This document shows, in pieces, positions 1-25,590 of a stretch of DNA of 32,000 nt (its first letter is position 1; every line of letters starts with the position of its first letter). The position numbers were made by a program, and so were the translations under genes. The notes below the pieces were generated by a model. That model searched no databases. It was not told where the DNA came from and worked only from the letters and a program-made list of their open reading frames with translations. This DNA is from an uncultured Clostridia bacterium (lineage in GTDB: Bacteria > Bacillota > Clostridia > Christensenellales > JAWKQI01), in NCBI GenBank assembly GCA_964453645.1, contig CAYVRJ010000001.1, positions 106,301-138,300 of the forward strand, read 5' to 3'.

Positions 1-13
1 AAGCCAAAAGGGG

Positions 14-1282: not shown

Positions 1283-1308
1283 TATTATTCTGAAAGGAAC
1301 CAAAAGAC

Positions 1309-2448: not shown

Positions 2449-2460
2449 TGAGGTTTACAC

Positions 2461-3309: not shown

Positions 3310-3323
3310 GAAGAACAGGTTGG

Positions 3324-3340
3324 CGTGAAAGAGTTTCACG
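3324..3340 (+). other. Intercistronic perfect hairpin (7-bp stem CGTGAAA/TTTCACG, loop GAG), no T-tract
   Basis: Read directly from the sequence, in the 52-nt gap between the two TIM-barrel genes. It is followed by gctaatgg rather than a U-run, so it is not an intrinsic terminator. Confidence 0.5.
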
Positions 3341-3361
3341 GCTAATGGAAGGGAGTTTTTT

Positions 3362-5786: not shown

Positions 5787-5794
5787 AGGTGTAC

Positions 5795-7222: not shown

Positions 7223-7224
7223 AC

Positions 7225-9374: not shown

Positions 9375-9387
9375 TTCAGCGTTGGTT

Positions 9388-10485
9388 ATGAAAAGTAAGC
9401 TACTCAGTGAAAAGAAACTATCTGCCGTCATCGGCTTTGATGGTTTTGTAGATGAAGTGGTTCACGTGGTGGACAAGCGAATTGATGCGGATAACTATAC
9501 CCGGGTGGAGACCCTTGCGGAGTATGGGACGCGCATTGCAAAGGCCTCGGGGCTTTCCTTTAACGTGGAGATTTTCCCCGTTGCCAAGAAATTGGGGGGC
9601 AATGGGCCGATCTTCGCCCTGGGGCTTAAAAAGTTTGGCATGGGCATCACCTACATCGGTGCCACGGGGCTTGCAAACACCAACAGCGTGTTTGCGGACT
9701 TAGCCCAGGGTTCCACAGTGATTGGGGTGACAGACCCTGCCCAAACAGATGCCATGGAGTTTTTGGACGGAAAGATCATCCGCTCCAAGCTCTCCACCCT
9801 CAATTCCCTCACATGGGAAAAGATTGTCAGTAAGCGGTCTGCTGGGGAATTAGCAGAACTGTTTGATGGTGCAGACCTTTTAAGCTTTAACAACTGGACG
9901 ATGATCACCCACATGAGTGACATTTGGTCGCATTTGTTAGAAGAAGTGTTTCCCCTAATGCGCAGCAGGGACAAGACGGTGTTCTTTGATTTGGCAGACC
10001 CTGAAAAGCGCAAACCCCAAGACATTCTCCACGCTCTTTCGCTGATTCAACAGTTTGAGAAGAGTGGCTTTTGCGTGGTGCTGGGGCTGAATAAAAAGGA
10101 AGCCTGTGAGATTTACGAGTTGATGACCCATGATAAGATTCTCGATTACGTTACTTTCGACCTTGAAAAGGTGTGTGTGAAGGTTTATGATCAGTTGGGA
10201 ATTCGCTGTCTGGTGGTTCACCCAACAGACCGTGCGGCTTGTGTGGTTGGCGGTGAATACTTTGAAGTGCAGGGGCCGTATTGCAAAAATCCGGTGTTAA
10301 CAACGGGTGCGGGGGATAACTTTAATGCTGGGTTTGTGCTGGGATATATGTCCCACTTAACCCCAACCGAGTGTTTGGAACTGGGTAACTTTTCATCGGG
10401 TTATTATGTGCGTTTTGCCAGAAGTGCCGATGTGTCCGAATTACTCTCCTTTATGGAGGACTTTAAACAAGGTAAAATCCAATAA
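9388..10485 (+). CDS. PfkB-family carbohydrate kinase
   Basis: C-terminal PfkB signature TTGAGDNFNAGFVLG and N-terminal GGNGPI motif. 365 aa from ATG 9388 (TTG 9382 is in frame). Confidence 0.85.
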   Translation: MKSKLLSEKKLSAVIGFDGFVDEVVHVVDKRIDADNYTRVETLAEYGTRIAKASGLSFNVEIFPVAKKLGGNGPIFALGLKKFGMGITYIGATGLANTNSVFADLAQGSTVIGVTDPAQTDAMEFLDGKIIRSKLSTLNSLTWEKIVSKRSAGELAELFDGADLLSFNNWTMITHMSDIWSHLLEEVFPLMRSRDKTVFFDLADPEKRKPQDILHALSLIQQFEKSGFCVVLGLNKKEACEIYELMTHDKILDYVTFDLEKVCVKVYDQLGIRCLVVHPTDRAACVVGGEYFEVQGPYCKNPVLTTGAGDNFNAGFVLGYMSHLTPTECLELGNFSSGYYVRFARSADVSELLSFMEDFKQGKIQ

Positions 10486-10500
10486 AAAAATGTTGAAAGT

Positions 10501-11682
10501 TTAGGGCTGATAGATTTCTATCGGCTCTTTCTTTTTGCGGTTCATCACTAAAAAGATGGTTCCTCCAATGAGAGCGGGAATGCCGGATATCATCAGCATG
10601 CTGTTGATACCCATGGTTTCGGATAAAAATCCAAACAGCGGGTTTCCCACCATCTGGGAGATGCTGAGTGTGGCTTGGTAGATGAGGGCAGCCCCCGATA
10701 GGAACTTTACGTCCACGTGTTTGGCAATATAATAAACCACGCCGGGCACGAAGAGGGCAAAGGAAATGGCTTGCAGTGCAACAAACACCCACACGAGAAA
10801 TACGTTGGATGCCAAAGAGAGCGCAATGGAGCGAATGAAATAACCCACCATGCCAAAACCCAGCAGTTTGGATACGCCAAATTTATTCTTGAGTTTGGTG
10901 AACCCCAGCATCACCCAAAACTCTGCAAAGGCCATGATGAAATAGGCAATACCCACTTCCGACTGATTTCCCCCCAGATGTTGAATCAGCAGGGGGGTGA
11001 AGGTGGCCATGGAGACAAAAGTTAAATAGGACAAAAAGGCTGTGACTAAAAGGAGCACATATTTTTTGTTGCCAAAGAGATAGGATGCCGACTTGCGGAT
11101 GGTGATGTGCGTGGCATTTTCGTGCACTTGGGGGTTGGGGATTTTAAGAATCACGGTGAGGATGGTGAGGAACACCAAGATCATTGCATAAATCGCCAAG
11201 TGATTTCCAAAAGACGAAAACAACTGGCCCAGTACAATGGCAAAAACAGCGTATGTTAAAGAACCAATGCTGCGCACCCGGCCGTAGTCTAGCTTCACCT
11301 TTTGCTTTTGCAGCTTAGTGATCCAGGAATCGATAATACCCGTGAGAGACTGGGTGGTACCCAAAACAACCACCGAAAAACCCACAATAAAGGCGGGAGC
11401 TTCATAGAAGAAAAAGAGCAGGGGCAGCCCCGCAGTGCCCACCAGCAGCACAATGGCGATCATTTGTTTGATTTTGTTGAACTTATCCGACAAATATCCA
11501 AAGACCGGCTGACAGATAAAACAACTGATGGCTGTCCACATTAAGGCGATGCCAATGCTAAAATCCGAATATCCGAAACTCTTTAAAAATACCGTATAAT
11601 ATCCGCAAAAAATGAGTATCACAGTAAAATATCCGCCCATGAGGACGGAAAATCTGCTCGTCAATCCCTTTACTTCTTTCAA
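10501..11682 (-). CDS. MFS transporter (12-TM, LacY/oligosaccharide- or nucleoside-H+ symporter-like)
   Basis: 393 aa, hydrophobic throughout, with GYLSDKF after TM2 as in sugar/nucleoside MFS symporters. TTG start at 11682 with SD GAGGAG 6 nt upstream. Confidence 0.8.
   Translation of the reverse strand: MKEVKGLTSRFSVLMGGYFTVILIFCGYYTVFLKSFGYSDFSIGIALMWTAISCFICQPVFGYLSDKFNKIKQMIAIVLLVGTAGLPLLFFFYEAPAFIVGFSVVVLGTTQSLTGIIDSWITKLQKQKVKLDYGRVRSIGSLTYAVFAIVLGQLFSSFGNHLAIYAMILVFLTILTVILKIPNPQVHENATHITIRKSASYLFGNKKYVLLLVTAFLSYLTFVSMATFTPLLIQHLGGNQSEVGIAYFIMAFAEFWVMLGFTKLKNKFGVSKLLGFGMVGYFIRSIALSLASNVFLVWVFVALQAISFALFVPGVVYYIAKHVDVKFLSGAALIYQATLSISQMVGNPLFGFLSETMGINSMLMISGIPALIGGTIFLVMNRKKKEPIEIYQP
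10506..10536 (+). terminator. Putative intrinsic terminator of the 14-10485 operon, embedded in the 3' end of the convergent MFS gene
   Basis: GCTGATAG-ATTT-CTATCGGC (8 bp with one G.U pair) followed by TCTTTCTTTTT. Begins 21 nt after the pfkB-like stop. Confidence 0.55.
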
Positions 11683-11784: not shown

Positions 11785-11813
11785 TTGATAATTCGACAGT
11801 TCAACAGTATAAT
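11785..11813 (+). promoter_or_regulatory. Near-consensus sigma-A-type promoter for the radical SAM / GDP-sugar operon
   Basis: TTGATA (11785-11790), 17-nt spacer, TATAAT (11808-11813). About 37 nt upstream of ATG 11850. Confidence 0.65.
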
Positions 11814-11849
11814 ACAGGAATGGTTTATTAAAACAGAAGGGTTTCTGTG

Positions 11850-13757
11850 ATGAAAAATGTGTATTTAGCCCAGCCCAATTATCTCTATGGCAACAACGCT
11901 TACTTACCCTATTCGGCAGGAGCTATTGCTGCCTATGCCTTTGACGATCCCCAAGTGGCAGCGCACTATGCCTTGCCCCCCATTCTTTTTTTGCGCAGAG
12001 ATATTGCAAAGGTTGTGGAAGAACTGGACAACCCATGTGTGTTTGGGTTTTCAAATTATGTCTGGAATTTCGAGTACAACTTGTTGCTTGCAAGGGCTGT
12101 GAAAGCTGCTTATCCCGATTGTCTCATCCTCTTTGGAGGGCATCACATTCAAACCAATTCGGTGGAACTATTAAAAGACCACCGTTTTATCGATATACTC
12201 ATCTACGACGAGGGAGAAAAACCCTTTAGAGACATACTCAAGGCACTCCTAAACGGACAAGGGTTTGAAGACATTACAAACATCGCATACCGCAAAGACG
12301 GGTTGATTGTTGCAAACCAACTGGAGCGCTGGGAGGATACGGACTATCCCTCCCCCTACCTCACCGGGGTTTTTGACAACATCATCAGCGATACAAACGT
12401 TCACTTCACGGCAACTTTAGAGACCAACCGGGGGTGCCCGTTCTCCTGTGCCTACTGCGATTGGGGCATTTATAAATCCAAACTCAGAGCCTTTCCCATG
12501 GAGCGGATTGCAGAGGAAATCCAGTGGTTTTCAAAGAACCGAATCGAACTGGTCATGGGTGCGGATTCCAACTTCGGCATTTTGGAGAGAGATGTAGACA
12601 TTGCCAAAATGTTGATTAAAGCCAAGAAAGAGACGGGGTATCCCCAAAAGTTTCGGGTGTCCTACACCAAAAACAGCAACAAAACGGTATATGCCATCAA
12701 TGAGGCCTTAAACAACTCAGGTATGAGCAAGGGAGCAACGCTGTCCTTCCAAAGCTTAAGTGAAAGGGTGCTTCAAAATATCAACCGTAAGAACATGGAT
12801 ATGGGTATGTTTTCAGAGCTGCTCAAGCTCTACAATGCAAACAATATTCCCACCTACTCGGAAATTATCATGGGATTGCCGGGGGAGACCTATGCATCTT
12901 TTGTGCAGGGCATTGATACCCTGTTGGAAAATGGCCAGCACAACTCCATTAATATTTATAACTGTGAACTGCTGCCCAATTCCCTCATGGCCTCAAAGGA
13001 ATATATGCAAACCCATGCGATACAAACCATAAGAACGCCCCTAAACCAATACCACTGCGAACCCCAATCGGGGGATATCACCGAGTATTCCAACGTGGTG
13101 GTGAGCAACAGCACGATGACCATGGACGATTGGGTATTGTGTAACGTCTTTTCTGTGGTGGTCCAGTGTTTCCACTGTTTGGGGCTGTTGCAGTACATCG
13201 CAGTATTTGCCCGGCACAGGTACGGCGTACCCTACCACAAGTTTTACAGCCAGTTGCTCTCCTTTTTACCCGGATGCACAGGCATTGGTCTTATTTTCAA
13301 TAAAATTGTGAACCAAATAAAGGGCATCTCCTCGGGAAGCACTTGGGAGTATACAAATCCAAAGTTTGGTAACATCACTTGGCCCTTGGACGAGGGTGCT
13401 TTTTTGGAGTGTATGTGTCTCATGGACAGTTTTTATGAGGAACTCACCCCCTTCTTTGAGACGATGATACCCAATCGTGAGGAATTGCAGGAACTGATTC
13501 GCTATCAAAAGGCCTTGGTTAAGAAACCCTTTGATCGGGACTTCCGCTTGACGTGTGTTTACGACTTTAAGGATTATTTCGAAAAGGTGTATCTGGGGTC
13601 TGAAGTTGAACTTCAAAAAAAGTTGTGCACTTATGAAGTTTGTGTGGGAAAGACATACCACTCCTTTGCGTTATACGCAGTGGAAGTGGTGTGGTACGGC
13701 CGCAAGGGTGGAACGAATATATATCAAACAAATTATTTGCATGAAGGCCTTGCGTAA
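11850..13757 (+). CDS. B12-binding-domain radical SAM protein (class B-like), substrate unknown
   Basis: CPFSCAYC = CxxxCxxC at nt 12435-12458. The N-terminal ~170 aa have the flavodoxin-like pattern of cobalamin-binding rSAM enzymes (VFGFSNYVWNF, LILFGGHH). Followed by a long C-terminal region of about 400 aa. SD agaaggg. Confidence 0.8.
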   Translation: MKNVYLAQPNYLYGNNAYLPYSAGAIAAYAFDDPQVAAHYALPPILFLRRDIAKVVEELDNPCVFGFSNYVWNFEYNLLLARAVKAAYPDCLILFGGHHIQTNSVELLKDHRFIDILIYDEGEKPFRDILKALLNGQGFEDITNIAYRKDGLIVANQLERWEDTDYPSPYLTGVFDNIISDTNVHFTATLETNRGCPFSCAYCDWGIYKSKLRAFPMERIAEEIQWFSKNRIELVMGADSNFGILERDVDIAKMLIKAKKETGYPQKFRVSYTKNSNKTVYAINEALNNSGMSKGATLSFQSLSERVLQNINRKNMDMGMFSELLKLYNANNIPTYSEIIMGLPGETYASFVQGIDTLLENGQHNSINIYNCELLPNSLMASKEYMQTHAIQTIRTPLNQYHCEPQSGDITEYSNVVVSNSTMTMDDWVLCNVFSVVVQCFHCLGLLQYIAVFARHRYGVPYHKFYSQLLSFLPGCTGIGLIFNKIVNQIKGISSGSTWEYTNPKFGNITWPLDEGAFLECMCLMDSFYEELTPFFETMIPNREELQELIRYQKALVKKPFDRDFRLTCVYDFKDYFEKVYLGSEVELQKKLCTYEVCVGKTYHSFALYAVEVVWYGRKGGTNIYQTNYLHEGLA

Positions 13758-13766
13758 AGATTGAAA

Positions 13767-13810
13767 ACGATTTGTGCCGTATGTGAAACGGCGGAATGGA
13801 GTTTATTTTG
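13767..13810 (+). promoter_or_regulatory. Conserved leader element, copy A (upstream of gmd)
   Basis: 33/38 identical (37/44 through the start codon) to 18357-18400, in exactly the same register relative to the start codon. Contains hairpin GCCGT-N7-ACGGC and the SD GGAG. Confidence 0.7.
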
Positions 13811-14815
13811 AAAAAAGCACTGATTACAGGCATCACCGGGCAAGACGGTTCATATCTTGCCGAACTGTTGCTGAAAAAAAACTATGAGGTCCACGGCATT
13901 GTGAGGAGAGCCAGTGTGTTTAACACCGAGCGAATCGATCACATCTTAAAGGACATTCAGACGTACCACGGGGATCTCACCGATTCCTCCAACCTAAACC
14001 GCCTCATGGAAAAGATTGAGCCCGACGAAATTTATAACCTTGCGGCTCAGTCCCACGTGAAGGTGAGTTTTGAGGTGCCCGAGTACACCGCCGAGGTAGA
14101 CGCTGTGGGCACCCTAAAAATGCTGGACACATTGTCTGAACTGCGAACCCACACCCGGTTTTATCAAGCCTCCACCTCCGAATTGTTCGGTGGGTTTCCC
14201 GAAACGGCACCCCAGAGCGAAACAACCCCTTTCACTCCCCGCTCTCCCTATGCTGCCGCAAAACTCTATGCCTATTGGGTCACCGTGAATTTTCGCGAGG
14301 CCTATAATCTCTATGCCTGCAACGGCATATTGTTTAACCACGAATCTCCCCGCAGAGGCAAGACGTTTGTGACAAAAAAGATCACCATGGCGGTGGCCGA
14401 CATCGTTAGGGGCAAGCAGGAAAAGCTCACCCTGGGCAACATGGATGCAAAGCGGGACTGGGGTTATGCCAAGGACTACGTATACGCCATGTGGCTCATG
14501 TTACAACAGGAAAAACCCGACGACTACGTGATTGCAACGGGGGAAACCCACTCTGTGCGAGAGTTTGTGGAAGCTGCCTTTCGTTATGTGGACATCACCA
14601 TTGAGTGGCAGGGCAGCGGTGTGCATGAAGTGGGCAGAGATGCTAAGACGGGAAAGATTTTAGTGGACATAAACCCAAAATATTTTCGGCCAACCGAGGT
14701 GGACTGCCTGCTGGGCGATGCCACAAAAGCAAAGGAACAGTTGGGTTTTGTGCCCAAAACCTCCTTTGAAGAACTGGTGCACATCATGATGGAGTACGAC
14801 CTTCATGAGAGATGA
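13808..14815 (+). CDS. gmd: GDP-mannose 4,6-dehydratase
   Basis: [43 protein letters not shown] and [13 protein letters not shown] are canonical Gmd motifs. TTG 13808 gives the usual MKKALITG N-terminus, with GGAG 6 nt upstream. In-frame ATG 13796 is the alternative. Confidence 0.93.
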
Positions 14816-15740
14816 AAAAATTTATTTGGCGGGGCACACCGGCTTGGTGGGAAGCGCCATATTTAAGGCCCTTAAGGACAGGGGATATACAAATATTCTC
14901 ACCGCTTCCCACAGGGAGCTGGATTTAACCAGGCAGGCGGACACAGAGGCTTTTTTCGAGCGGGAAAAGCCAACATACGTCATATTAGCTGCTGCAAAGG
15001 TGGGGGGCATTGGGGCGAATATGCAGAGTATGGCCGACTTTGGTTATATCAACGCCATGATCGGGGCAAACGTCATACACAGCGCCTACGCATACGGAGT
15101 AAAAAAACTCTTGTATTTGGGCAGTTCGTGTATATATCCAAGGCAGTGCCCCCAGCCCATGCGGGAGGACTGCCTCCTAACGGGTATTCCCGAACCCACC
15201 AACGAAGCCTATGCCCTCTCCAAAATATTGGGGCTTAAGCTTTGCGAGTACTACAACACCCAGTACAACTGCAACTTTATCAGTGCCATGCCCTGCAACA
15301 TATACGGTGAGGGGGACAATTTCGACGAAAAGACGTCCCACGTCATCCCTGCCCTCATGCAAAAGATGCACAACGCCCATGTTCGGGGGGAGGATAGCGT
15401 TCTCATTTGGGGCACGGGCAGAGCTAGACGGGAGTTTTTACACGTCTTTGACTTGGCTTTGGCCTGTATCTTTCTGCTGGAAAACTACGATGACAAACAG
15501 TTTGTCAACGTGGGTGCTGGGCATGACGTGACCATTGCCCAGTTGGCAGATATGATGCGCCAGGTGGTGGGCTTTCGGGGGGAAATCGTCTTCGATACCT
15601 CCAAACCCGACGGCATGATGAAAAAGTGTGTGGATACGTCTAAAATCAATGGCCTGGGGTGGAAGAGTGAGATCGATCTTATGAATGGCCTTAAGCAGAC
15701 GTACGCTTGGTTTTTAGAAAATATTGTGAGGTATACATGA
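14805..15740 (+). CDS. fcl: GDP-L-fucose synthase family epimerase/reductase (Fcl, or its paralog GDP-L-colitose synthase ColC)
   Basis: About 45% identity by eye to E. coli Fcl: [43 protein letters not shown]. Overlaps gmd by 11 nt and colD by ATGA. Confidence 0.88.
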
Positions 15741-16888
15741 AAAAATATCCGTTGGCGTCGGGGACGTGGGGACAAGAGGAACGGGAAGCAATCCTTCGGG
15801 TGATGGACAGGGACATGTTCACCATGGGTCAAGAAGTGTTAGAGTGCGAACAGGCCTTTGCTAAACAGTTTGGTGCAAACTATGCGGTCATGTGTAATTC
15901 GGGTTCGTCTGCAAATTTGTTGGCAGTGGGAGCTATGGTCTATTCGGGCAGATGGCAGCGGGGAGACGAAATCATCGTTCCCGCAATTGCATGGGCAACG
16001 ACGTACTATCCCCTCTATCAATACGGGCTGAAGCTTCGGTTTGTGGATATCGACAGGGAAACCCTGAACATCAGCATCCCCGCCTTAAAAGAGGCGATCA
16101 CCCCCAACACCAAGGGGCTGGTTGCAGTGAATCTCCTTGGCAACCCCAACGAGTTCAATGATATTGAACGTATTTGCAGGGATGGGGGGATCACCTACTT
16201 CGAGGACAACTGCGAGAGTATGGGTGCCAAATACAAGGGCAAATATGCGGGAACCTTTGGGCTTATGGGCACGTACAGCTCCTTTTTCTCCCACCACATC
16301 TCCACCATGGAGGGTGGGTTTATCACAACCGACGATGAACTACTCTACGACATGCTCAAGTGCCTGCGGGCACACGGCTGGACGAGGAATTTAAATAGTG
16401 ACAGCGTGTTGTTTGAGAAGGGGGATGAATTTTACGAACTGTTTCACTTTATCCTTCCGGGTTACAACTTTCGCCCCATGGAGATGCAAGGGGCCATCGG
16501 GAAAGAACAGCTCAAGCGTTTGGAAGGGTTTGTAACCCTGCGGCGGCAAAACGCACTGTATTTTAAAGAGAAGTTTAGGGACTTACCCCTCACCGTGCAA
16601 CAAGAGACGGGGGAAAGCTCCTATTTTGGACTGGCATTTCTTTTAAACAAACCCGGCAAACGCAATGCACTGGCAAAAAAGCTAATGGACAGCGGCATTG
16701 AGTGCAGGCCGGTGATGACGGGTAATTTCACCAAAAATCCCGTGATTCAATATATGGAGTTTAATATTTCGGGCACCCTGGACAATGCGGATTATGTCCA
16801 TGAAAACGGCATATTCCTTGGCAACCACAGCTACGACTTAAGGCAACACATCGACTATGCCTACGACGTAATTTGCGGAGAACTGTGA
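15737..16888 (+). CDS. colD: GDP-4-keto-6-deoxy-D-mannose 3-dehydratase (ColD-type, DegT/AAT-fold)
   Basis: Colinear with E. coli O55 ColD as I recall it (YPLAS-TW, MFTMG, FEDNCESMGA, RAHGWTRN, LPGYN-RP-EM, QQETGESS-FG, IECRP). The PLP-lysine position is His (SFFSHHISTMEGG, His187, nt 16295-16297). Confidence 0.82.
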   Translation: MKKYPLASGTWGQEEREAILRVMDRDMFTMGQEVLECEQAFAKQFGANYAVMCNSGSSANLLAVGAMVYSGRWQRGDEIIVPAIAWATTYYPLYQYGLKLRFVDIDRETLNISIPALKEAITPNTKGLVAVNLLGNPNEFNDIERICRDGGITYFEDNCESMGAKYKGKYAGTFGLMGTYSSFFSHHISTMEGGFITTDDELLYDMLKCLRAHGWTRNLNSDSVLFEKGDEFYELFHFILPGYNFRPMEMQGAIGKEQLKRLEGFVTLRRQNALYFKEKFRDLPLTVQQETGESSYFGLAFLLNKPGKRNALAKKLMDSGIECRPVMTGNFTKNPVIQYMEFNISGTLDNADYVHENGIFLGNHSYDLRQHIDYAYDVICGEL

Positions 16889-16891
16889 AGA

Positions 16892-18337
16892 ATGGATTAT
16901 AATATGAGCAGTTTTGTATTTGGCACCGGTGGGATCCGGGAAGTGATGGGGCAAGGCGAAGGGAAGATGAACGACGATGTGATTATTTTGGCATCTCTGG
17001 CGCTTGCCCGGTTTCTCTTTGAAAAGTTTGAGAACCCCAAAGTTTTGGTGGCCTACGACAGCAGAATCAATTCCAAGGAGTGGGCGAACCTCACGGCAAA
17101 GGTGTTGGTCTCCAAGGGGGTTGAGGCCTTTGTTTTTGATCGGCTGTGCCCCACCCCGGTGCTCAGCTTTGCTATTTTACATCTGAATTTATCGGCAGGG
17201 GTGGTGATCACCGCCAGCCACAACACAAAGGAATACAACGGTTATAAGGTGTACGGGCACACCGGGGTGCAGTGCGTGCCCCAAGAGACCAAACAAATAA
17301 CAAAACACGGCCAGCAGTGTAGCGTCTTTGATTATGTTGAGCCAGAGGCAGACATTCAAACGGTTGGGGAGGACGTGCTGCGTGCCTTTTATGATGCCGT
17401 GCTCTGTGAATCTGTCTTTGAAGAAACTGCAACTGCAAGTGAACTAAACGTTGTGTTCACCCCCCTCCACGGAACGGGTGGCCTGCCCGTTCTCACAGTG
17501 CTTAGAGAAGCGGGATTTCGTGATGTGTTGGTGGTGGAAGAACAGTTTGAACCCGATGGCAATTTCCCCACCGTGGATTCCCCCAACCCCGAGGAACCCT
17601 CCGCTCTAAAAATGGCCATTGACTTGGCGAATCAGACGGGTGCGGATATAGTCATTGGCACAGACCCGGATTGCGACAGGGTGGGGGTTGCGGTGCGCCA
17701 CATGGGTAAGTACGTGCAGCTCAGCGGCAACGAGGCAGGGGCACTGCTCACCGGGTATCTCCTTTTCAAAAAGAGCGGCAACACCTTGGTGAAAACAGTT
17801 GTGTCGGGAGAGCTGGGCGGGCAAATTGCCCGGCAAAACGGACTAAACGTAATCAATACTCCCACTGGGTTTAAATACATCGGCGAACAGATGGAAAGCT
17901 TAGGCGAAGACTTCTTTTTTGCCTACGAGGAGAGCTTTGGTTATTTGGGCGGGCGTTATGCCCGGGACAAATGCGGGGTGGGCGCATGTCTGCTCCTGTG
18001 CCAATGTGCGGCACACCATAAACAACGGGGAAAAACCTTAGTGGATGCCCTAAACGAACTCAAAGCAACCTATGGCCACTACCAAGACTTTGGCCAGAGT
18101 ATACGGCTTGACCCCGGTCAACAGGAGAAAGTGATTGAACGGTTAAAAAGCTTGGATGGAATTTTGGAGGTGGAGGAGGCAGGTAGTTTCTTAAAACTGC
18201 ACTTTCACAACGGATGGATTGCCGTTCGGCCTTCGGGTACCGAACCAAAACTCAAGCTGTATTACAGCGCCAAGGGAGAGAGCCATGAAGCGGCTCAAGT
18301 AGCACTGGATGAACTAAAGAAAAGAGTAGGGGCTTAA
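16892..18337 (+). CDS. manB: Phosphomannomutase/phosphoglucomutase (alpha-D-phosphohexomutase)
   Basis: Active-site loop VVITASHNTKEYNGYKVY (Ser at nt 17216-17218; the usual Pro after SHN is Thr). Metal loop GTDPDCDR, sugar loop AYEESFGY, phosphate loop RPSGTEPKLK. The symbol is assigned from operon context. Confidence 0.8.
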   Translation: MDYNMSSFVFGTGGIREVMGQGEGKMNDDVIILASLALARFLFEKFENPKVLVAYDSRINSKEWANLTAKVLVSKGVEAFVFDRLCPTPVLSFAILHLNLSAGVVITASHNTKEYNGYKVYGHTGVQCVPQETKQITKHGQQCSVFDYVEPEADIQTVGEDVLRAFYDAVLCESVFEETATASELNVVFTPLHGTGGLPVLTVLREAGFRDVLVVEEQFEPDGNFPTVDSPNPEEPSALKMAIDLANQTGADIVIGTDPDCDRVGVAVRHMGKYVQLSGNEAGALLTGYLLFKKSGNTLVKTVVSGELGGQIARQNGLNVINTPTGFKYIGEQMESLGEDFFFAYEESFGYLGGRYARDKCGVGACLLLCQCAAHHKQRGKTLVDALNELKATYGHYQDFGQSIRLDPGQQEKVIERLKSLDGILEVEEAGSFLKLHFHNGWIAVRPSGTEPKLKLYYSAKGESHEAAQVALDELKKRVGA

Positions 18338-18356
18338 CGTGAGAGATTTTTTACGG

Positions 18357-18400
18357 ACGATTTGTGACGTAAGCCAGACGGCGGAATGGAGTTTTTTATG
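18357..18400 (+). promoter_or_regulatory. Conserved leader element, copy B (upstream of manC)
   Basis: Same element as 13767-13810, offset by exactly 4590 nt: ACGATTTGTGaCGTA-N6-ACGGCGGAATGGAGTTT, then 3 nt and the ATG. Confidence 0.7.
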
Positions 18401-19732
18401 AACATAGTATTATTATCGGGGGGGTCGGGCAAGCGGCTGTGGCCTTTGTCCAACGAAACTCGCTCCAAACAGTTTCTTAAATTATTGAGCACAGACAGTG
18501 GGGAAAAGCAGTCCATGATTCAACGGGTGTTTTCCCAGATCAAAGAGGCAGGCCTTGATAAAAGCCTCACGGTGACCACCAGCAGCACCCAGGAGAGTGC
18601 CATCGTTGGCCAAATCGGGGACAGTGCCAACATCGTCATCGAGCCGGAGAGGCGGGACACTTTTCCCGCAATCGCACTGGCGTGTTGTTATTTAAAGTTT
18701 AACAAATGCTTGTCCGACGACGAAGTGGTGATCGTTATGCCCGTGGATCCCTATGTGGACATCGATTATTTTCATAAGTTCCAAGAATTAAAGGACGGTG
18801 TAAACACCAATCAGTACGACATTGTGCTCATGGGTGTGACACCCACCTACCCTTCGGAGAAGTATGGATACATTCAGCCAAAGGCGGGGGGAAGTTTGCG
18901 GGAAGTGGATAGATTCAAAGAAAAACCCACCGTAGCCCAGGCCGAAGAGTTAATTGCTGGGGGTGCACTGTGGAACTGTGGGGTGTTTGCCTTTAAGCTT
19001 GGTTATATGATGAACGTCCTTGCAAAGTATATGGATGTCTCGTCCTATGAAGAGGTGTATGAAAACTATCACCTGCTCAACAAAAACAGTATGGACTACG
19101 AAGTGGTGGAAAAGGCGAAGCGGATTGGCCTCATAACCTACGACGGCAGATGGATGGACATGGGCACGTGGAACACCTTAGCCGAAGAGATGGGTGCAAA
19201 CACCATCGGCAGGGTCACTTTATCCCAAAACTCTAAGAACACCCACGTGATCAACGAGCTGAGCATTCCCGTGGTGGTCATCGGTGCTAAGGATATGATC
19301 GTTGCTGCAAACTACGACGGCATTCTGGTGAGCGACAAGGAGCAGAGTTCCTATTTGAAAGAGTATTTGAGCGATGTAAACAATCGCCCCATGTTTGAGG
19401 AGAGAGCGTGGGGCAGATATAAGGTGTTGGAGCTGTTTTCTTTGGGAAACGGCAACAAATCCTTAACAAAACATTTGTTTGTCAAACAGGGTAAGAAGCT
19501 GAGTTATCAAATGCACAGGCTGAGGCAAGAAATTTGGACGATTATTTCGGGCACAGGTATTTTCACCATGGACGGAATGAACAGTTCGGTGAAGGCGGGA
19601 GACGTGTTCACCATTGACATCGGCAAAAAACACACCATTCAAGCGCTCACAGACTTGGAATTGATCGAAGTGCAACTGGGTAAAGAGTTAGAGGAAAATG
19701 ATATCATTCGCTTTGAGGAGGAATCGATTTGA
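18398..19732 (+). CDS. manC: Mannose-1-phosphate guanylyltransferase with C-terminal cupin domain
   Basis: MNIVLLSGGSGKRLWPLS (GGxGxRLWPLS). C-terminal cupin (LSYQMHRLRQEIWTIISGTG). ATG 18398 has GGAG 6 nt upstream. In-frame ATG 18386 is the alternative. Confidence 0.9.
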   Translation: MNIVLLSGGSGKRLWPLSNETRSKQFLKLLSTDSGEKQSMIQRVFSQIKEAGLDKSLTVTTSSTQESAIVGQIGDSANIVIEPERRDTFPAIALACCYLKFNKCLSDDEVVIVMPVDPYVDIDYFHKFQELKDGVNTNQYDIVLMGVTPTYPSEKYGYIQPKAGGSLREVDRFKEKPTVAQAEELIAGGALWNCGVFAFKLGYMMNVLAKYMDVSSYEEVYENYHLLNKNSMDYEVVEKAKRIGLITYDGRWMDMGTWNTLAEEMGANTIGRVTLSQNSKNTHVINELSIPVVVIGAKDMIVAANYDGILVSDKEQSSYLKEYLSDVNNRPMFEERAWGRYKVLELFSLGNGNKSLTKHLFVKQGKKLSYQMHRLRQEIWTIISGTGIFTMDGMNSSVKAGDVFTIDIGKKHTIQALTDLELIEVQLGKELEENDIIRFEEESI

Positions 19733-20607
19733 AAGTAGTATTGATGGACGGCGGGCTGGGCAACCAAATGTTTCAATATATATTTGCACGGTTTGTGGAA
19801 CTGTATTCGGGCGAACCCGTTTTTATCGACGATGCATTCTTTTTCTACGCAGACTTACACAACGGGTATGAAGTGGAAAAGGTGTTTCCCAACGCAAAAC
19901 CAAGGCTGCTCAGCAAAGAGTTTAGCCCCGGAACGTGGGATCAAATTGTGCAGTATGTAAAGAACGAGGCAGCGTTTCCCGAATTTATGAACAACGGTGG
20001 CAACAATTTCTTTGTTGTTTTTGAAAGTGGCGACATTCGTTATACTGGTAATATGGTGAAAGTGCCAGCCAACCAGTTTACCCCCGATATCGCCATCACC
20101 CAGGGTAATGTCTATTACTTTGGCTATTGGATCAACAAGAGGTGGTTGTCAAGTATTGCAGATTCAATAATGAGGGAGTTGGAGTTTCCGCCCATCCCCG
20201 GTGCACACAACCAAGACTATACAAGGTTGATTGAGAAAACCAATTCCGTTGCAGTACACATCCGCAGGGGAGATTTTGTGGATATAAAGTGGACGTTAGA
20301 GGACTCCTTTTATTTTAACTCCATAAAGGAAATCGCCCATAGGGTGGACAATCCAACATTTTTCATCTTTTCGGACGATCTCAACTGGTGCAGGGAAAAC
20401 AGCGAAGGATTGGGTTTTGAATTTGCAAAGGGAAATCTGGTGTATGTGGAGGGTAACATGGACAAACAAAACAACTATGTGGACATGCAGCTCATGTCTA
20501 TGTGCAAGCACATGGTCATCGCCAACAGTTCCTTTAGTTATTTGGCAGCCCTGCTCAACAGAAATGAAAACAAACTCATTGCCAATCCCACAGCACGGGA
20601 GCTTTAA
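19729..20607 (+). CDS. Glycosyltransferase family 11 (alpha-1,2-fucosyltransferase-like; possible colitosyltransferase)
   Basis: GGLGNQMFQY, HIRRGDF, FIFSDD and ANSSFSYLAALL are the GT11 motifs. TTG start overlaps the manC stop (TTGA), with SD GAGGAGG 7 nt upstream. Confidence 0.88.
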   Translation: MKVVLMDGGLGNQMFQYIFARFVELYSGEPVFIDDAFFFYADLHNGYEVEKVFPNAKPRLLSKEFSPGTWDQIVQYVKNEAAFPEFMNNGGNNFFVVFESGDIRYTGNMVKVPANQFTPDIAITQGNVYYFGYWINKRWLSSIADSIMRELEFPPIPGAHNQDYTRLIEKTNSVAVHIRRGDFVDIKWTLEDSFYFNSIKEIAHRVDNPTFFIFSDDLNWCRENSEGLGFEFAKGNLVYVEGNMDKQNNYVDMQLMSMCKHMVIANSSFSYLAALLNRNENKLIANPTAREL

Positions 20608-20630
20608 ATATATTTTGTAAGGAGTGTCAC

Positions 20631-21983
20631 ATGGAAAAGAAAAAGAGAAAAGGACTAATTTTGATCATACTGCTGGGCCTTGTTGTGGTGATTGCAGGGT
20701 ATTTTTTAATCAACAGCTACATCAAGAGCCTGCCGGTATTTCAGTATGTAAACGGAACAAATACACAAATTGAATATCCCGACGCAAACTTTGCTGTGAT
20801 CAGCGATCTGCACATGTACGACCCTTCCCTGGGCACCGAAGGTGAGGCCTTTGATGAAGTGATGAACAGTGACAGAAAATTGCTGCTCAACAGCGAAGAG
20901 CTGCTGGATCTGGCGGTTGAACGCATTTTGGAATCCAAGGTGGATTTTGTGCTCATCCCCGGGGATATCACCAAGGACGGCGAGGTGGTGAACCATCAAA
21001 TTGCCGCAAACAAGCTGCAAGTCTTGGAGGACAACGGCATTCAGGTCTATGTGGTGCCCGGCAACCACGACATCAACAACCCGGACAGCAAGTCCTTTGC
21101 GGGCAGTAGTGCAACAAACGTGCCCAGCATCACCCCCGAAGACTTTAAACGGGTGTACGGAGGGTTTGGCTACGACAGCGCACTGTTTAAAGACGAAAAC
21201 ACTTTGAGTTACGCAACAGAGCCAATAGAGGGGCTATACATCTTAGGTTTGGACGGTTGCCAATACAATGTGGAAGGCCAGCGGAACCACAGCATCACCG
21301 GGGCGAAATATAACCAATCCACCATCGACTGGATCACCCAAACCGTTGCATATGCCCAGCAAAACGGCAAGGCCGTCATCGTCCTCTCCCACCACGGCAT
21401 TGTGGAGCACTGGAAGGGGCAGAGTTCCCTTCACCCCGAATATTTAACTCACGACTACCGTTATGTGGGTGAATTGTTGGCATCCTACAACGTGCGGTTG
21501 GCTTTTACAGGCCATTACCACGCACAGGACATTGTGCGGGGGGATTTTAACCAAGGTTTTCTCTACGACATTGAAACGGGTTCCCTGGTGACAGCCCCGT
21601 GCCCCGTGCGGTACGTTTCCATTGAAAACGGTGCTGCCACTGTGCGGACGGAAACGCTGGTGGATCAGCTGCACCCAGGCACAGACTTTGAAAAAAATGC
21701 AACGGATTTTGTGAAAAAGACAGTGGTGTTGGAGGCGTTTGCCACCCTTAAGAAATACTTGGTGTCCGACGAAGATGCCAACTACATTGCAAATCTGGTG
21801 GGGGATGCCTTTGTTGCCCACTACAGCGGAAATGAAGATCCAAGCCAGCGCATTATGGTGGATCAAAGTAAACTAAACTTGTGGGGCCAAATAGTCTATG
21901 CAACCCAGGGTTATGCCTTGGATGGCCTGTGGAACGACTTGCCCCCGCAGGACAGGGAGGCAGTGCTGCCGCTCAATCAATAA
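20631..21983 (+). CDS. Membrane-anchored calcineurin-like metallophosphoesterase
   Basis: N-terminal TM helix (LILIILLGLVVVIAGYFLI), then SDLH, GDITKDG, GNHD, SHHG and GHYH metallophosphoesterase motifs. SD aaggag 6 nt upstream. Confidence 0.85.
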   Translation: MEKKKRKGLILIILLGLVVVIAGYFLINSYIKSLPVFQYVNGTNTQIEYPDANFAVISDLHMYDPSLGTEGEAFDEVMNSDRKLLLNSEELLDLAVERILESKVDFVLIPGDITKDGEVVNHQIAANKLQVLEDNGIQVYVVPGNHDINNPDSKSFAGSSATNVPSITPEDFKRVYGGFGYDSALFKDENTLSYATEPIEGLYILGLDGCQYNVEGQRNHSITGAKYNQSTIDWITQTVAYAQQNGKAVIVLSHHGIVEHWKGQSSLHPEYLTHDYRYVGELLASYNVRLAFTGHYHAQDIVRGDFNQGFLYDIETGSLVTAPCPVRYVSIENGAATVRTETLVDQLHPGTDFEKNATDFVKKTVVLEAFATLKKYLVSDEDANYIANLVGDAFVAHYSGNEDPSQRIMVDQSKLNLWGQIVYATQGYALDGLWNDLPPQDREAVLPLNQ

Positions 21984-21998
21984 AGGAATAAACATACA

Positions 21999-22034
21999 GT
22001 CGGCAGGTTTTTAGCCTTGCCGACTTATTTGTTT
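21999..22034 (+). terminator. Rho-independent terminator of the radical SAM / GDP-sugar operon
   Basis: GTCGGCAGG-N8-CTTGCCGAC (9 bp with one G.U pair) followed by TTATTTGTTT. Begins 16 nt after the stop at 21983. Confidence 0.75.
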
Positions 22035-22079
22035 ATAATACATTCATAATAGATTTCCATTATTTTTTTATTTGCATGA

Positions 22080-22108
22080 TTGACTTTTTTACAATAAAAT
22101 CATACAAT
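22080..22108 (+). promoter_or_regulatory. Sigma-A-type promoter for the HD-GYP gene
   Basis: TTGACT (22080-22085), 17-nt spacer, TACAAT (22103-22108), in an AT-rich gap. Confidence 0.65.
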
Positions 22109-22171
22109 ATTATTGACGTTTTTCACCAGAAAGGAATGAGCTTAAAAGGAATGGATAAGGAGAATCAAATC

Positions 22172-23248
22172 GTGCACTTACGACCGATTTCTATTGAATA
22201 TTTAAAAGCAGGTATGCAGGTTCCCGACGATGTATACAATCACACGGGTAAATTGCTTTTGATTCCCAAGGGTTCATTGCTGACAGATACCATGTTGCTG
22301 CGGTTAAAGCGCCACAACGATGAGAATAAGAACATATGCGTTTCACCCATGCTGCACCGGGATTTATTGCAAAGTGATCTGCCCGAAAAGTTTGAACAAT
22401 CCTATATCGAGGACAGCATCGGTTATACCGAAACCAAGGAGCAAACCCAAGAGCTGTTCAGCGATGTGGAACACGGCAGCAGTGTGTCAAAGCAACAGGC
22501 GGAGCAGGTGTTTTTTGGCCTGTCCGAAAAATTAGCAACGGTGGATCCTTCCATCATATTTCAATGCGTAAACGGCAAAAACGATATCGACGAATACTTA
22601 TATAGGCACAGTGCCAACGTTGCACTCATCAACGGGTTGATCGGCAAGTGGCTGAATCTGCCCCAAATGGACATCGACATGCTGGTTATGGCGGGATTAC
22701 TCCACGATATCGGCAAAGCGAAGATTCCCCCGGCCATCCTCCACGCACCGCGAAAGCTCACCCCCAAGGAGTTTGAAATTATGAAACTCCACTCGGTGTA
22801 TTCTTTCGATTTGGTTTCGGAACAGAAGTTTAACAGTGCCATCCTCACGGCTGTGCGCCACCACCACGAAAAGATGAACGGTTCGGGTTACCCCGATCAC
22901 TTAAGTGCAGAGGAGATTTCCCTGTATGCCCGGATCACCGCCGTATCCGATGTGTACGACGCCATGGTTTCCAAGCGGTGTTATAAGGAAGCACACAGCC
23001 CCTTTGCGATTCTTGCTCAAATGGCCAAGCAGCGTCTGTCCGAGCTGGATATGCGCATTGTGGGTATATTTACCGACCTCATGCCCTATCAGCTTGTGGG
23101 TAAATCGGTGCTGATGTCCGACGGTTCAGTGGGCACAATCAAACACATTATGAACAACAAACCCGAATTCCCCTTGGTGGAGATCAACGGCGTGGTCGTT
23201 GCCACCAACAACAACCTGTACTGCTCGCGCATGATCTTTGACGAATAG
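22172..23248 (+). CDS. HD-GYP domain c-di-GMP phosphodiesterase-type protein with DUF3391-like N-terminus
   Basis: LLHDIGK (HD) and HHHEKMNGSGYP (nt 22859-22894). The N-terminus (RPISIEYLKAGMQVPDDVYN) resembles the DUF3391 region common in HD-GYP proteins. GTG 22172 has SD AAGGAG 9 nt upstream. ATG 22136 and 22151 are alternatives with poor SD spacing. Confidence 0.85.
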   Translation: MHLRPISIEYLKAGMQVPDDVYNHTGKLLLIPKGSLLTDTMLLRLKRHNDENKNICVSPMLHRDLLQSDLPEKFEQSYIEDSIGYTETKEQTQELFSDVEHGSSVSKQQAEQVFFGLSEKLATVDPSIIFQCVNGKNDIDEYLYRHSANVALINGLIGKWLNLPQMDIDMLVMAGLLHDIGKAKIPPAILHAPRKLTPKEFEIMKLHSVYSFDLVSEQKFNSAILTAVRHHHEKMNGSGYPDHLSAEEISLYARITAVSDVYDAMVSKRCYKEAHSPFAILAQMAKQRLSELDMRIVGIFTDLMPYQLVGKSVLMSDGSVGTIKHIMNNKPEFPLVEINGVVVATNNNLYCSRMIFDE

Positions 23249-23505: not shown

Positions 23506-25590
23506 ATGAAAAAAATACTGTTGTTGCTATTTATTGGCGTTGCTATCTTTTGTGGTTGCGGAATTTTTGTTGATCCTGCGGCAACTGCGAAAGATTTTTT
23601 GCATGCCATCGCCAGCCGCAACTTTGCAAAAGCCTACGACCTCACGTGGTATTATTCCCCTCAGCGGTATTCCAAGGAAGAATTTGTGGCAAAATACACC
23701 AGCATCTTTTCGGGGTTGCAGGTCTCAGACATTACCTATTCCAACGAACAACTAAACGACGATGGGACTCAACTGACCTATACATACGACGCAGTGTATC
23801 ACACGAAATACGGAGAGTTTGAAGGGCAATACACAATGATGCTGGCCATCACCGAAGAGGGTTATGCCGTTGATTATGCGCCCAATTTAATATTACCCGA
23901 AATGGAATTCGGCGATACCATTCGGGTATCCACTCAAAATGCCAACAGGGGGGAGATATTCACCCAAGATCATTACGTTCTGGCGAAAAACACCTACGCA
24001 TACACCGTCTTTTTGCAGGTGGCAGAGGTGGAAAACATTGACGAAACGTCCCTGGGATTGAGTGCATATGTAGATATTTCCGCAATGGATATTGTGGAGA
24101 GGTATGACTATGCAAAAAAGAACGGGTATGAAGTGGCAATTGTCAAATCGTTTCAGCAGTTAGACAGTGCTTTGATGGAAAAAATTACAGCCATTCAAGG
24201 GGTTGCGGTGGACGCCCAGGGTATGACCCCCCTTCGCTACTACGAAGAGAACAGTGCAGCCGCACATCTAACGGGTTATGCCACGGCAGCCCAAAAGGAA
24301 GATTTGGAAAAGCTGTCCATGAGGGAAGGAAAACCGCCTGCCTTTGTGGGGCGAACGGGACTGGAGGGGGAGTTTAACGAAGAATTGTCCGAGCAAAGGG
24401 GGATACTGGTGGCTTTGGTGGACGAATCGGGCAGCGTGAAGCGAACGCTCTACGAAGAACAGCCAAAGCATGGGGCAGACGTTTGGCTCAATATCGATGG
24501 CGACTTGCAGGAGCGAGCGTATTTAGCCTTAGCCCAGTATGTGGACGAAACCCAGGGCGGTTGTGCCGTGGTGCTCAACGCAGATACGGGAGCAGTGCTC
24601 TGTGCGGCTTCCTATCCCTCCTTTGACCCAAACAAGTTTACCTTAGGGGTGGCAAAGGACTACTGGGACAGTTTAATGGAAAACAAATTAACCCCCCTGT
24701 ACTCTCGGTTTTCACAGGGCAGGTATCCACCGGGGTCTACGTTTAAACCCTTCACCATCGTTCCCGCTCTGGACAGCGGGGTCATCACCACCAACTCCGT
24801 CTTTCCCGCAACCGAACGGGTTGTGGACAGGCGGTGGACGCCCTCCTTCGAGCGAAACTGGTATTTTCCCCCCATTACAAGGAAAGACCCGTTGACACTG
24901 GAGCCGACCTTGGAGAACTGCATGATCGTGTCCGACAACATTTTCTTTGCCTATGCCATGCTCAAGCTGGGGGAAGACAAGTTGATGGACTATCTGCACA
25001 AAATTGGGATGGACAAGCCCCTGGACTTTGCCCTGCCCTTGGGAAAACCCAACATACTAAACGCCGAAGAAAATTTAACACGCAAGATGTTGGCAGACAT
25101 GGGTTATGGTCAGGGGGAGTTGCTCATCACGCCCGTCCAGTTGGCAGCTATGTTCACAGCCTTTGTCAACGACGGAGATATATTAACGCCCCAACTGGTG
25201 AATAAAATATCCATCAGCAGGGACGGAAAGGAAGAGATACTTCAGGAATTTGGCAGGGAAGTGGCTGTTGCAGATGTTATATCGGCTTCAGCACGAAAGA
25301 CCCTGCTTCCCATATTAAAAAAGGTAATGGAACCCGGCGGAACGGGCAGCCCCTCCCGGGTGAGCGGAAAGACCCTGGCGGGTAAGACGGGCACCGCACA
25401 GCTTGGGGGAGAGCAGGAGATCGGTTGGATTGTCACCTTTGAAACGGAGGGGCAAGACCGTCGGTTGGTTTTGGTGATGGTGGACGGCCCTGCCCGTTTG
25501 GGTGCAACGAAGTTTGCCATTGCTAAGGAACTCATGTCGTATCAGAACCTGCCCGAAACACCTCCGGATACAACACCCAACGAAGACTAA
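23506..25590 (+). CDS. Class B penicillin-binding protein with NTF2-like (MecA_N) N-terminal domain
   Basis: Signal/lipobox-like N-terminus (LLLLFIGVAIFCGCG). AKDFLHAIASRNFAKAY is an NTF2-like domain. Transpeptidase motifs STFKP (SxxK), SDN (SxN) and KTGT. Confidence 0.9.
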   Translation: MKKILLLLFIGVAIFCGCGIFVDPAATAKDFLHAIASRNFAKAYDLTWYYSPQRYSKEEFVAKYTSIFSGLQVSDITYSNEQLNDDGTQLTYTYDAVYHTKYGEFEGQYTMMLAITEEGYAVDYAPNLILPEMEFGDTIRVSTQNANRGEIFTQDHYVLAKNTYAYTVFLQVAEVENIDETSLGLSAYVDISAMDIVERYDYAKKNGYEVAIVKSFQQLDSALMEKITAIQGVAVDAQGMTPLRYYEENSAAAHLTGYATAAQKEDLEKLSMREGKPPAFVGRTGLEGEFNEELSEQRGILVALVDESGSVKRTLYEEQPKHGADVWLNIDGDLQERAYLALAQYVDETQGGCAVVLNADTGAVLCAASYPSFDPNKFTLGVAKDYWDSLMENKLTPLYSRFSQGRYPPGSTFKPFTIVPALDSGVITTNSVFPATERVVDRRWTPSFERNWYFPPITRKDPLTLEPTLENCMIVSDNIFFAYAMLKLGEDKLMDYLHKIGMDKPLDFALPLGKPNILNAEENLTRKMLADMGYGQGELLITPVQLAAMFTAFVNDGDILTPQLVNKISISRDGKEEILQEFGREVAVADVISASARKTLLPILKKVMEPGGTGSPSRVSGKTLAGKTGTAQLGGEQEIGWIVTFETEGQDRRLVLVMVDGPARLGATKFAIAKELMSYQNLPETPPDTTPNED

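Follow-up and report, generated by a model that had tools for sequence, protein, structure and literature searches.

We analysed a 32,000-nt stretch of DNA from an uncultured Clostridia bacterium (contig CAYVRJ010000001.1, positions 106,301 to 138,300), hereafter the window, in which eight genes (11850-21983), all on the + strand, lie between a promoter match and a strong terminator. They encode a cobalamin-dependent radical S-adenosylmethionine (rSAM) enzyme, enzymes for guanosine diphosphate (GDP)-activated sugars of the colitose type, a glycosyltransferase of family GT11 and a phosphoesterase. We give an even chance to the reading that this single operon builds a C-methylated 3,6-dideoxyhexose of the colitose type and transfers it, through the GT11 enzyme, to an acceptor. 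Since the rSAM enzyme is predicted to be of the TokK type and its relatives are linked to deoxysugar genes, the product is probably not plain colitose but a methylated rare sugar, so far undescribed. Somewhat more tentatively, at a little below even confidence, the enzyme would be the first recognised member of a TokK-type family that C-methylates GDP- or other nucleoside diphosphate (NDP)-activated deoxysugars, or their glycans, here in a monoderm spore former; the undescribed product would be either branched (for example 3-C-methyl-colitose) or chain-extended (6-C-methyl, i.e. 3,6,7-trideoxyheptose). The colitose-type pathway itself is known; the putative radical C-methylase joined to it is uncharacterised. 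The features of the operon are, in window numbering:

11785..11813, + strand: sigma-70-type promoter, TTGATA-17-TATAAT, 11 of 12 consensus positions
11850..13757, + strand: rSAM, cobalamin-dependent, TokK/CysS-type putative C-methyltransferase, 635 aa
13796-14815, + strand: gmd
14805-15740, + strand: fcl-like gene
15737-16888, + strand: colD
16892-18337, + strand: manB
18386-19732, + strand: manC
19729-20607, + strand: GT11, TTG start
20631-21983, + strand: phosphoesterase
21998..22034, + strand: intrinsic terminator, stem 21998-22025 of 10 pairs (6 GC) with a T-rich tail

The anatomy of the operon argues well for co-transcription of the eight genes. The seven junctions are, in gene order, +38, -11, -4 (ATGA), +3, +48, -4 (TTGA) and +23 nt; neighbouring genes thus either overlap or are separated by no more than 48 nt. 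The promoter match (TTGATA at 11785-11790, a 17-nt spacer, TATAAT at 11808-11813) is the sole one of at least 11/12 in the window, both strands having been scanned. At least one match of 11/12 also arises in 44% of block shuffles, so that the informative evidence is the placement of the site, not its mere existence: it sits in the 164-nt gap between the divergent major facilitator superfamily (MFS) transporter gene and the rSAM gene, the only long intergenic gap, with 36 nt from the promoter to the first ATG (11850). At the other end the terminator hairpin reaches -22.2 kcal/mol (z = -6.99), a value matched by none of 200 shuffles. The promoter, the eight-gene run and its overlaps and gaps are present in the sequence exactly as described in an earlier note on this DNA. 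The hairpin and T-tract that it placed at the operon end are equally borne out (z = -7.0). Within the unit the + strand also shows five weaker terminator-like sites.

For the rSAM gene, ATG 11850 is the more likely start: the 635-aa product from this ATG is on record, and an exact look-up of the product starting at GTG 11847 gave no match. The public gene call for manC begins at ATG 18398. The same locus is recorded in the Logan assembly SRR10912416 and in a 354-kb NCBI contig. A riboswitch upstream of the rSAM gene is not expected because the leader from promoter to ATG is too short, and an Rfam scan of the window returned no riboswitch or other RNA.

The rSAM protein matches the Pfam families PF02310 (B12-binding; 32.9 bits for a cut-off of 32.1) and PF04055 (Radical_SAM; 50 bits). 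Its alignment with TokK (7KDX) scores 314.7 bits over residues 11-483, with 28% identity, and that with CysS 142.6 bits. We built an AlphaFold (AF2) model from 36 homologues (predicted local distance difference test, pLDDT, 91.2; predicted template-modelling score, pTM, 0.89). Compared by Foldseek, this model resembles TokK 7KDX over its full length (template-modelling score, TM, 0.90; 675 columns), CysS with a TM of 0.76-0.78, and TsrM and OxsB with a TM of only about 0.5. The cluster cysteines C196, C200 and C203 (CxxxCxxC) are invariant across 36 family sequences, as are, in the family alignment, W72 and W205, the equivalents of TokK W76 and W215. In TokK, W76 is the hydrophobic residue under the cobalt that typifies radical methylases, and W215 lies between the cobalamin and the cluster; relatives that are non-radical or non-methylating have a polar residue under the cobalt, Arg in TsrM and Asn/water in OxsB (2026 review, PMC12931638). 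Sequence and model thus both point to a putative TokK-type (iterative) C-methylase. The protein is not a member of the KedN5 family (NF033712: 268.5 bits for a cut-off of 700, residues 20-400 matched), and its C-terminal domain (residues 400-635) forms a family of its own that, clustered at 50%, has about 555 representatives. We have therefore filed it as TokK/CysS-like in mechanism but outside the named subfamilies.

This C-terminal domain also occurs in proteins of roughly double length (1000-1283 aa, including P0364 and P0365), two of which carry two copies of it, suggesting fused tandem rSAM enzymes.

To place the enzyme in its genomic context we considered 97 loci from named genomes and metagenomes, with 290 family members in total. 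Most of these loci belong to Acutalibacteraceae and other metagenome-assembled genomes (MAGs) of Oscillospirales type. Two or more rSAM copies are found in 69 of the 97, and in tandem arrays as many as eight or nine TokK-like paralogs share 15-20 kb with a small GT2-like gene that breaks up the series (e.g. L101 1-15042, CAZTCR010000001.1; also L011, L051 and L089). The recurrent neighbours are a GT2-like protein (46/97 loci), a 416-aa polytopic membrane protein (28/97), an HddC-like guanylyltransferase fused to GmhB (17/97), an HddA-like kinase (16/97), epimerases of the short-chain dehydrogenase/reductase (SDR) superfamily (16/97), cupins (15/97) and Fkp-like fucokinase/pyrophosphorylases (8/97). 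The HddC/GmhB-, HddA- and Fkp-like neighbours indicate that the rSAM family as a whole lives among genes for GDP-activated sugars. A tie of the whole family to colitose genes was rejected, most members being in paralog arrays that lack ColD, Fcl and ManC.

In a neighbour-joining tree the rSAM of the window falls in a small single-copy group with those of L003, L004, L084 and L032, which L107 and L108 joined once added. With the window itself this gives seven informative contexts. Deoxysugar or GT11 genes are present in all seven, an Fcl-like gene in five and GT11 in three; five also have a 3-dehydrase of the His type, which resembles either ColD or, where it bears a Cys-rich insert, E1. L004 carries a ColD-like gene (48% identity, His kept), an fcl-like gene, the rSAM gene and manC. 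In L084 (47-13013, OFGF01000048.1) we found an rSAM fragment with a SPASM domain, a thiamine pyrophosphate (TPP) enzyme, an amine oxidase, gmd, a 509-aa protein and an fcl-like gene, together with a His-type dehydrase with a CxCxxC-type Cys-rich insert, manC, the TokK-like rSAM and a GT-D transferase. L032 (3880-11956, JBAYHH010000003.1) comes from a MAG of Candidatus Magasanikiibacteriota, of the candidate phyla radiation (CPR); an Fcl-like gene and an E1-like 3-dehydrase (HH motif, Cys-rich) both lie upstream of its rSAM gene, at a distance of a few genes. L108 combines GT11, a nucleotidyltransferase and rSAM; genes for an E1-like dehydrase, a dehydratase and an RmlC-like protein follow at some distance downstream. 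L107 combines rSAM, GT2 and GT11. Among the GT11 proteins, those of the window and L107 resemble each other most (44% identity), and the rSAM proteins of these two loci are also nearest neighbours (50%). The closest rSAM homologue of all (52%) is in L106, on a contig too short to give context. Among the about 90 other family loci there is no Fcl-like protein, ManC or ColD-type dehydrase; two of them have distant DegT-family neighbours only (26-29% identity).

That the linkage recurs in unrelated gene sets and phyla is our main reason to propose that the rSAM enzyme acts on a deoxysugar, and the 3-dehydrase in five of the seven contexts favours a 3-deoxy substrate. The earlier note had recognised a cobalamin-type rSAM enzyme with no role in the known pathway; the type stands, but what emerges is a predicted methylase of the TokK type, and deoxysugar genes recur beside its relatives.

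The sugar pathway is clearest for gmd and colD, for which profile cut-offs and comparison with characterised homologues agree with the earlier assignments. By its profile scores the product of 13796..14815 is GDP-mannose 4,6-dehydratase (Gmd): it passes the NCBI equivalog TIGR01472 (554 bits for a cut-off of 415) and matches PF16363 with 491 bits. The DegT-family protein is, on sequence criteria, ColD, the GDP-4-keto-6-deoxy-D-mannose 3-dehydratase dependent on pyridoxamine or pyridoxal phosphate (PMP/PLP), and not an aminotransferase. It is 56% identical to ColD of E. coli O55 (2GMS) from end to end (472 bits, residues 3-379), while the other DegT-fold enzymes score far lower, at 150 bits for the cytidine diphosphate (CDP)-sugar dehydrase E1 and 122 bits for perosamine synthase. 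It also keeps the SHHI motif, whose first His is the catalytic His188 (located through the H188N mutant entry 3B8X), in place of the aminotransferase Lys. Thus the grouping with genuine aminotransferases that the earlier note had named as an outcome contradicting its reading is not what was found (472 versus 122 bits, His188 kept). Homologues of this ColD are similarly distant (53-58%) in Thermotogota, Campylobacterota, Enterobacteria, Cloacimonadota and at least one Peptostreptococcaceae MAG.

The SDR protein encoded between gmd and colD is, judging from its motifs and profile, a member of the GDP-4-keto-6-deoxyhexose epimerase/4-reductase family. It keeps the catalytic GSSC, YxxxK and SH(V)IPA motifs (Ser/Cys/Tyr/Lys/His), scores 443 bits with the NCBIfam Fcl model, under the cut-off of 500, and is 53% identical to the Fcl-like gene product preceding ColD on a contig labelled Peptostreptococcaceae. 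Sequence comparison does not separate ColC from Fcl activity; the protein is presumed to perform the ColC step from its position, its gene being coupled between gmd and colD. In E. coli O55 (ColC, ColD and WbgN were taken from the chromosome of strain CB9615), colC and colD stand in the same order and likewise overlap by 4 nt. The supply of GDP-mannose, i.e. a phosphomannomutase and a guanylyltransferase, appears to be provided for at the level of domain architecture. The phosphohexomutase (16892..18337) has all four PGM_PMM Pfam domains and from these and its context we infer the ManB role; the ManC protein combines NTP_transferase with MannoseP_isomer, a C-terminal cupin of the phosphomannose isomerase type. 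A DNA search of the window fcl-colD against E. coli genomes gave no match, and the same search with gmd matched only gmd of the colanic-acid type.

The product of 19729..20607 is, from its profile and motifs, a GT11 enzyme, i.e. of the alpha-1,2-fucosyl/colitosyl-transferase family (PF01531, 89.4 bits for a cut-off of 23.9; HxRRxD motif present), which agrees with the single GT11 of the earlier note. It is 29% identical to WbgN, the colitosyltransferase of E. coli O55; its VHIRRGDF aligns with the VHIRRGDY of WbgN, and ANSSFS is aligned as well. WbgN is a characterised GT11 alpha-1,2-colitosyltransferase that also accepts GDP-fucose (PMC12723683). The L107 homologue, 44% identical, lies 2.7 kb from the rSAM homologue of that locus. 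No solved structure related by sequence to the window GT11 was found.

The last gene (20631..21983) encodes what its sequence identifies as a membrane-anchored metallophosphoesterase of the Lmo2642 type (PF00149, 60 bits; 159.7 bits to PDB 2XMO, Lmo2642, over residues 53-328). The protein begins with MEKKKRKG and a hydrophobic stretch of 22 residues, from which the catalytic domain is predicted to face outward. The "ecto-phosphoesterase" of the earlier note is thus retained as an anchored Lmo2642-like enzyme, but a tie to glycan function is not required; it may be a passenger that need not belong to that function. Lmo2642 of Listeria monocytogenes (PDB 2XMO) resembles it in the catalytic domain, the length (443 versus 450 aa) and the N-terminal anchor. 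In a description that cites Kim et al. 2011, Lmo2642 is a cyclic-nucleotide phosphodiesterase. No link of Lmo2642 to glycan synthesis is known, whereas its homologue here lies in a sugar operon. An anti-phage phosphoesterase identity was rejected (NCBIfam match of 35 bits for a cut-off of 420).

The colitose genes are not unique to the window among Firmicutes. A gmd - fcl-like - colD - GT11 cassette without rSAM is present in L104 (7961-12110, ENA ERZ27273576 contig_1558_polypolish), inside a polysaccharide (capsule) cluster of the Wzx/EpsG type; its ColD (P0265) is labelled by NCBI as from a Peptostreptococcaceae bacterium, and its GT11 is nearer to WbgN (38% identity) than that of the window. 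The earlier note had held colitose to be documented only in Gram-negative lipopolysaccharide (LPS). The searchable literature agrees (PMC8987622), but this cassette on a Peptostreptococcaceae-labelled contig qualifies the claim as far as the genes are concerned. In the same literature we found no link between colitose and radical SAM, between cobalamin rSAM and GDP-mannose or between TokK and nucleotide sugars, and nothing on dideoxyhexose in Firmicutes or on rSAM with heptose.

The host of the operon is likely a monoderm spore former, judging from 32 kb. The flanking SipL (SPOCS and LysM domains), YtxC, Maf, RnfB and RnfD were found by Pfam, which agrees with the SipL-like, YtxC-like and rnf flanks seen before. 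A penicillin-binding protein (PBP, 23506-25590) has one relative at 57% identity and then named relatives at 29-34%; the named ones in the top 120 are all monoderm, from Clostridia and Bacilli (Christensenella, Caldicoprobacter, Fredinandcohnia, Roseburia). The six window proteins tested are all singletons at 90% identity. Together with the distance of the PBP relatives this indicates a poorly sampled lineage of Clostridia type. The Gram-positive endospore former of the earlier note is favoured, as the likely host, by the sporulation genes and the monoderm PBP relatives. The 32-kb window has no gene for LPS or for an outer membrane.

From these data the following route can be proposed. ManB and ManC would provide GDP-mannose, which Gmd would convert to GDP-4-keto-6-deoxy-D-mannose; ColD would strip the 3-hydroxyl, and the Fcl-type enzyme would epimerise and reduce the product to a GDP-colitose-type sugar, probably with some GDP-L-fucose too. 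The rSAM enzyme would use its 5'-deoxyadenosyl radical to take a hydrogen atom from an unactivated sugar carbon and pass the methyl of methylcobalamin to the sugar radical, adding one or more methyls. It could do so before or after the Fcl step, and on the nucleotide sugar or post-transfer. Candidate sites are the new C-3 methylene beside the 4-keto group, which would formally resemble the first methylation by TokK beside a carbonyl, or the C-6 methyl. Transfer by the GT11 enzyme would then take place in the cytoplasm, onto an acceptor whose genes lie elsewhere. In this scheme we infer the methylation of the sugar, its site and the acceptor.

Several observations weigh against such a route. 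The bootstrap of the rSAM subgroup is only 31-58%, so that the tree alone is weak evidence. L003 carries gmd (cut by the contig end), an fcl-like gene, manC and rSAM, with no dehydrase between, so that the rSAM may be linked more broadly to 6-deoxyhexoses. The solved relatives TokK and CysS act on pantetheine-linked substrates, not sugars, and the rSAM enzyme could modify the acceptor instead. No initiating transferase, flippase or polymerase is found in the 32-kb window, which makes the operon look like a self-contained decoration module with its acceptor encoded elsewhere. As for the pathway, the Fcl-type protein is 48-49% identical to E. coli Fcl versus 38% to ColC of E. coli O55; since it is nearer to Fcl and yet below the Fcl cut-off, its ColC role derives from position only, and of the "Fcl-type ColC" of the earlier note the Fcl-type reductase is what stands. 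Similarly, its ManB and ManC hold at the family and domain level but do not reach equivalog cut-offs, the best NCBIfam score being 210 bits for ManB, and TIGR01479 giving 235 bits for a cut-off of 373 for ManC.

We consider it unlikely, though well worth keeping in view, that the operon merely decorates with plain GDP-L-colitose or GDP-L-fucose while the rSAM enzyme, simply co-transcribed, methylates some other target, whether the glycan acceptor, a carrier lipid or peptide, or a metabolite of no relation to the sugar. The pathway genes alone suffice for GDP-colitose, the Peptostreptococcaceae cassette does without rSAM, and many members of the rSAM family adjoin GT2-like and polytopic membrane proteins and not nucleotide-sugar enzymes, which would fit an action on assembled glycan. 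However, the rSAM subgroup adjoins Fcl-like and/or 3-dehydrase genes in independent lineages whose gene sets are otherwise different, and in several loci the rSAM gene stands between sugar genes (fcl-rSAM-manC in L004, manC-rSAM in L084). That the rSAM enzyme acts on the sugar in another way than by methylation (epimerisation, rearrangement, ring contraction or dehydration, like OxsB and AprD4) appears improbable. Cobalamin rSAM enzymes do include the non-methylases OxsB and TsrM, and the KedN5 family cut-off is not reached, but in both sequence and fold the protein comes closest to the radical methylases TokK and CysS (TM 0.90 and 0.78, versus about 0.5 for TsrM and OxsB), and the Trp under the cobalamin is invariant where TsrM has Arg and OxsB Asn/water.

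Two further explanations have very little probability in our view. The operon could make GDP-L-fucose only, with an inactive ColD-like protein or an aminotransferase in its place and an ordinary fucosyltransferase as GT11. This would suit the proximity of the Fcl-type enzyme to true Fcl (48-49%) and the fact that GT11 enzymes are mostly fucosyltransferases, WbgN itself taking GDP-fucose too; it is hard to reconcile with a ColD 56% identical to a characterised enzyme over its whole length, with His where an aminotransferase needs Lys, and translationally coupled to its neighbours. Hardly more credible is a diderm Firmicute host (of Negativicutes or Halanaerobiales type) whose LPS the operon would decorate. 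Some diderm Firmicutes also sporulate, the window proteins tested are singletons at 90% and the PBP reaches only 34% with any named relative; against this stand the uniformly monoderm named relatives among the top 120 for the PBP, the presence of SipL and YtxC, and a window devoid of LPS and outer-membrane genes.

Among the known systems nearest to the proposed operon is the GDP-L-colitose pathway of E. coli O55/O111 and Yersinia pseudotuberculosis, with the same enzyme set (ManB/ManC, Gmd, ColD and ColC, the last of them presumed in the window) and the GT11 WbgN. With E. coli O55 the window shares a ColD at 56% identity with His188 and an fcl-type gene before colD with a 4-nt overlap. It differs in its host, which looks like a monoderm spore former, in a locus outside any O-antigen or Wzx/Wzy cluster, in a reductase nearer to Fcl, in a GT11 with only 29% identity to WbgN and in the TokK-type rSAM gene that leads the operon. 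The C-methyltransferases TokK/ThnK (carbapenem) and CysS/KedN5 share with the window enzyme the three-domain architecture, the CxxxCxxC motif and the W76/W215 equivalents, but the latter lies amid nucleotide-sugar genes and not in a beta-lactam or polyketide cluster.

Precedent for the C-methylation of sugars by B12-rSAM enzymes exists in GenK, GenD1 and Fom3, three cobalamin rSAM enzymes of antibiotic pathways that methylate carbons of sugars or alcohols; GenK methylates C-6' of an aminosugar. Their substrates are aminoglycoside pseudo-oligosaccharides or a cytidylylated hydroxyethylphosphonate, in the secondary metabolism of actinomycetes, and none of the three is among the significant PDB or NCBIfam matches of the window rSAM. 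Another parallel is the CDP-3,6-dideoxyhexose route, which uses E1/RfbH, and yersiniose, a branched 3,6-dideoxy sugar made via the TPP enzyme YerE. E1-like His-type dehydrases with a Cys-rich insert stand beside the rSAM in L084, L032 and L108, in L084 together with a TPP enzyme, which points to the elaboration of 3,6-dideoxy sugars. The window, in contrast, uses the GDP/ColD route and not CDP/E1-E3, and the branching of yersiniose is by TPP, not by radical methylation.

To our knowledge colitose, an immunodominant LPS sugar, is known only from Gram-negative bacteria. An apparently full colitose pathway with a transferase in Clostridia-type bacteria predicts that Gram-positive cells, some of them gut organisms, also bear 3,6-dideoxyhexose epitopes on their surfaces. 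The value of the observation lies less in Gram-positive colitose than in a substrate hypothesis that can be tested for a large rSAM family, whose several hundred enzymes are uncharacterised: GDP-4-keto-3,6-dideoxymannose or GDP-colitose. If true, radical C-methylation would join the known routes to bacterial sugars and would offer new enzymes for glyco-engineering. For gut Acutalibacteraceae, in which as many as eight tandem paralogs adjoin genes of the GDP-heptose type, it would mean that a major gut lineage has surface glycans with many C-methyl groups.

Some features of the remainder of the window can be mentioned. Following the terminator, 22076-23248 (+) encodes an HD_5 protein of HD-GYP type, whose N-terminal domain of 170 residues is of unknown type, and promoter-like sites lie near this gene (22071-22108). 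On the other side the divergent transporter (LacY/MFS_1_like, 10501-11682, - strand) has its own promoter-like site, TG-extended, at 11740-11712. It is preceded by genes for a prokaryotic ketohexokinase and an aldolase of the DeoC/LacD family (8631-10485, +). Further upstream, 4213-8634 (+) holds four translationally coupled genes, for an ATP-binding cassette (ABC) ATPase, an ABC-2 permease and, after these, two large accessory proteins, a DUF7088/ABC_transp_aux protein (477 aa) and a DUF4340 protein (478 aa). The first run of the window (1-4276, +) encodes a URO-D-like protein, a GFO/IDH/MocA oxidoreductase and two xylose-isomerase-like TIM-barrel (AP_endonuc_2) proteins, and looks like a catabolic set of sugar or inositol type.

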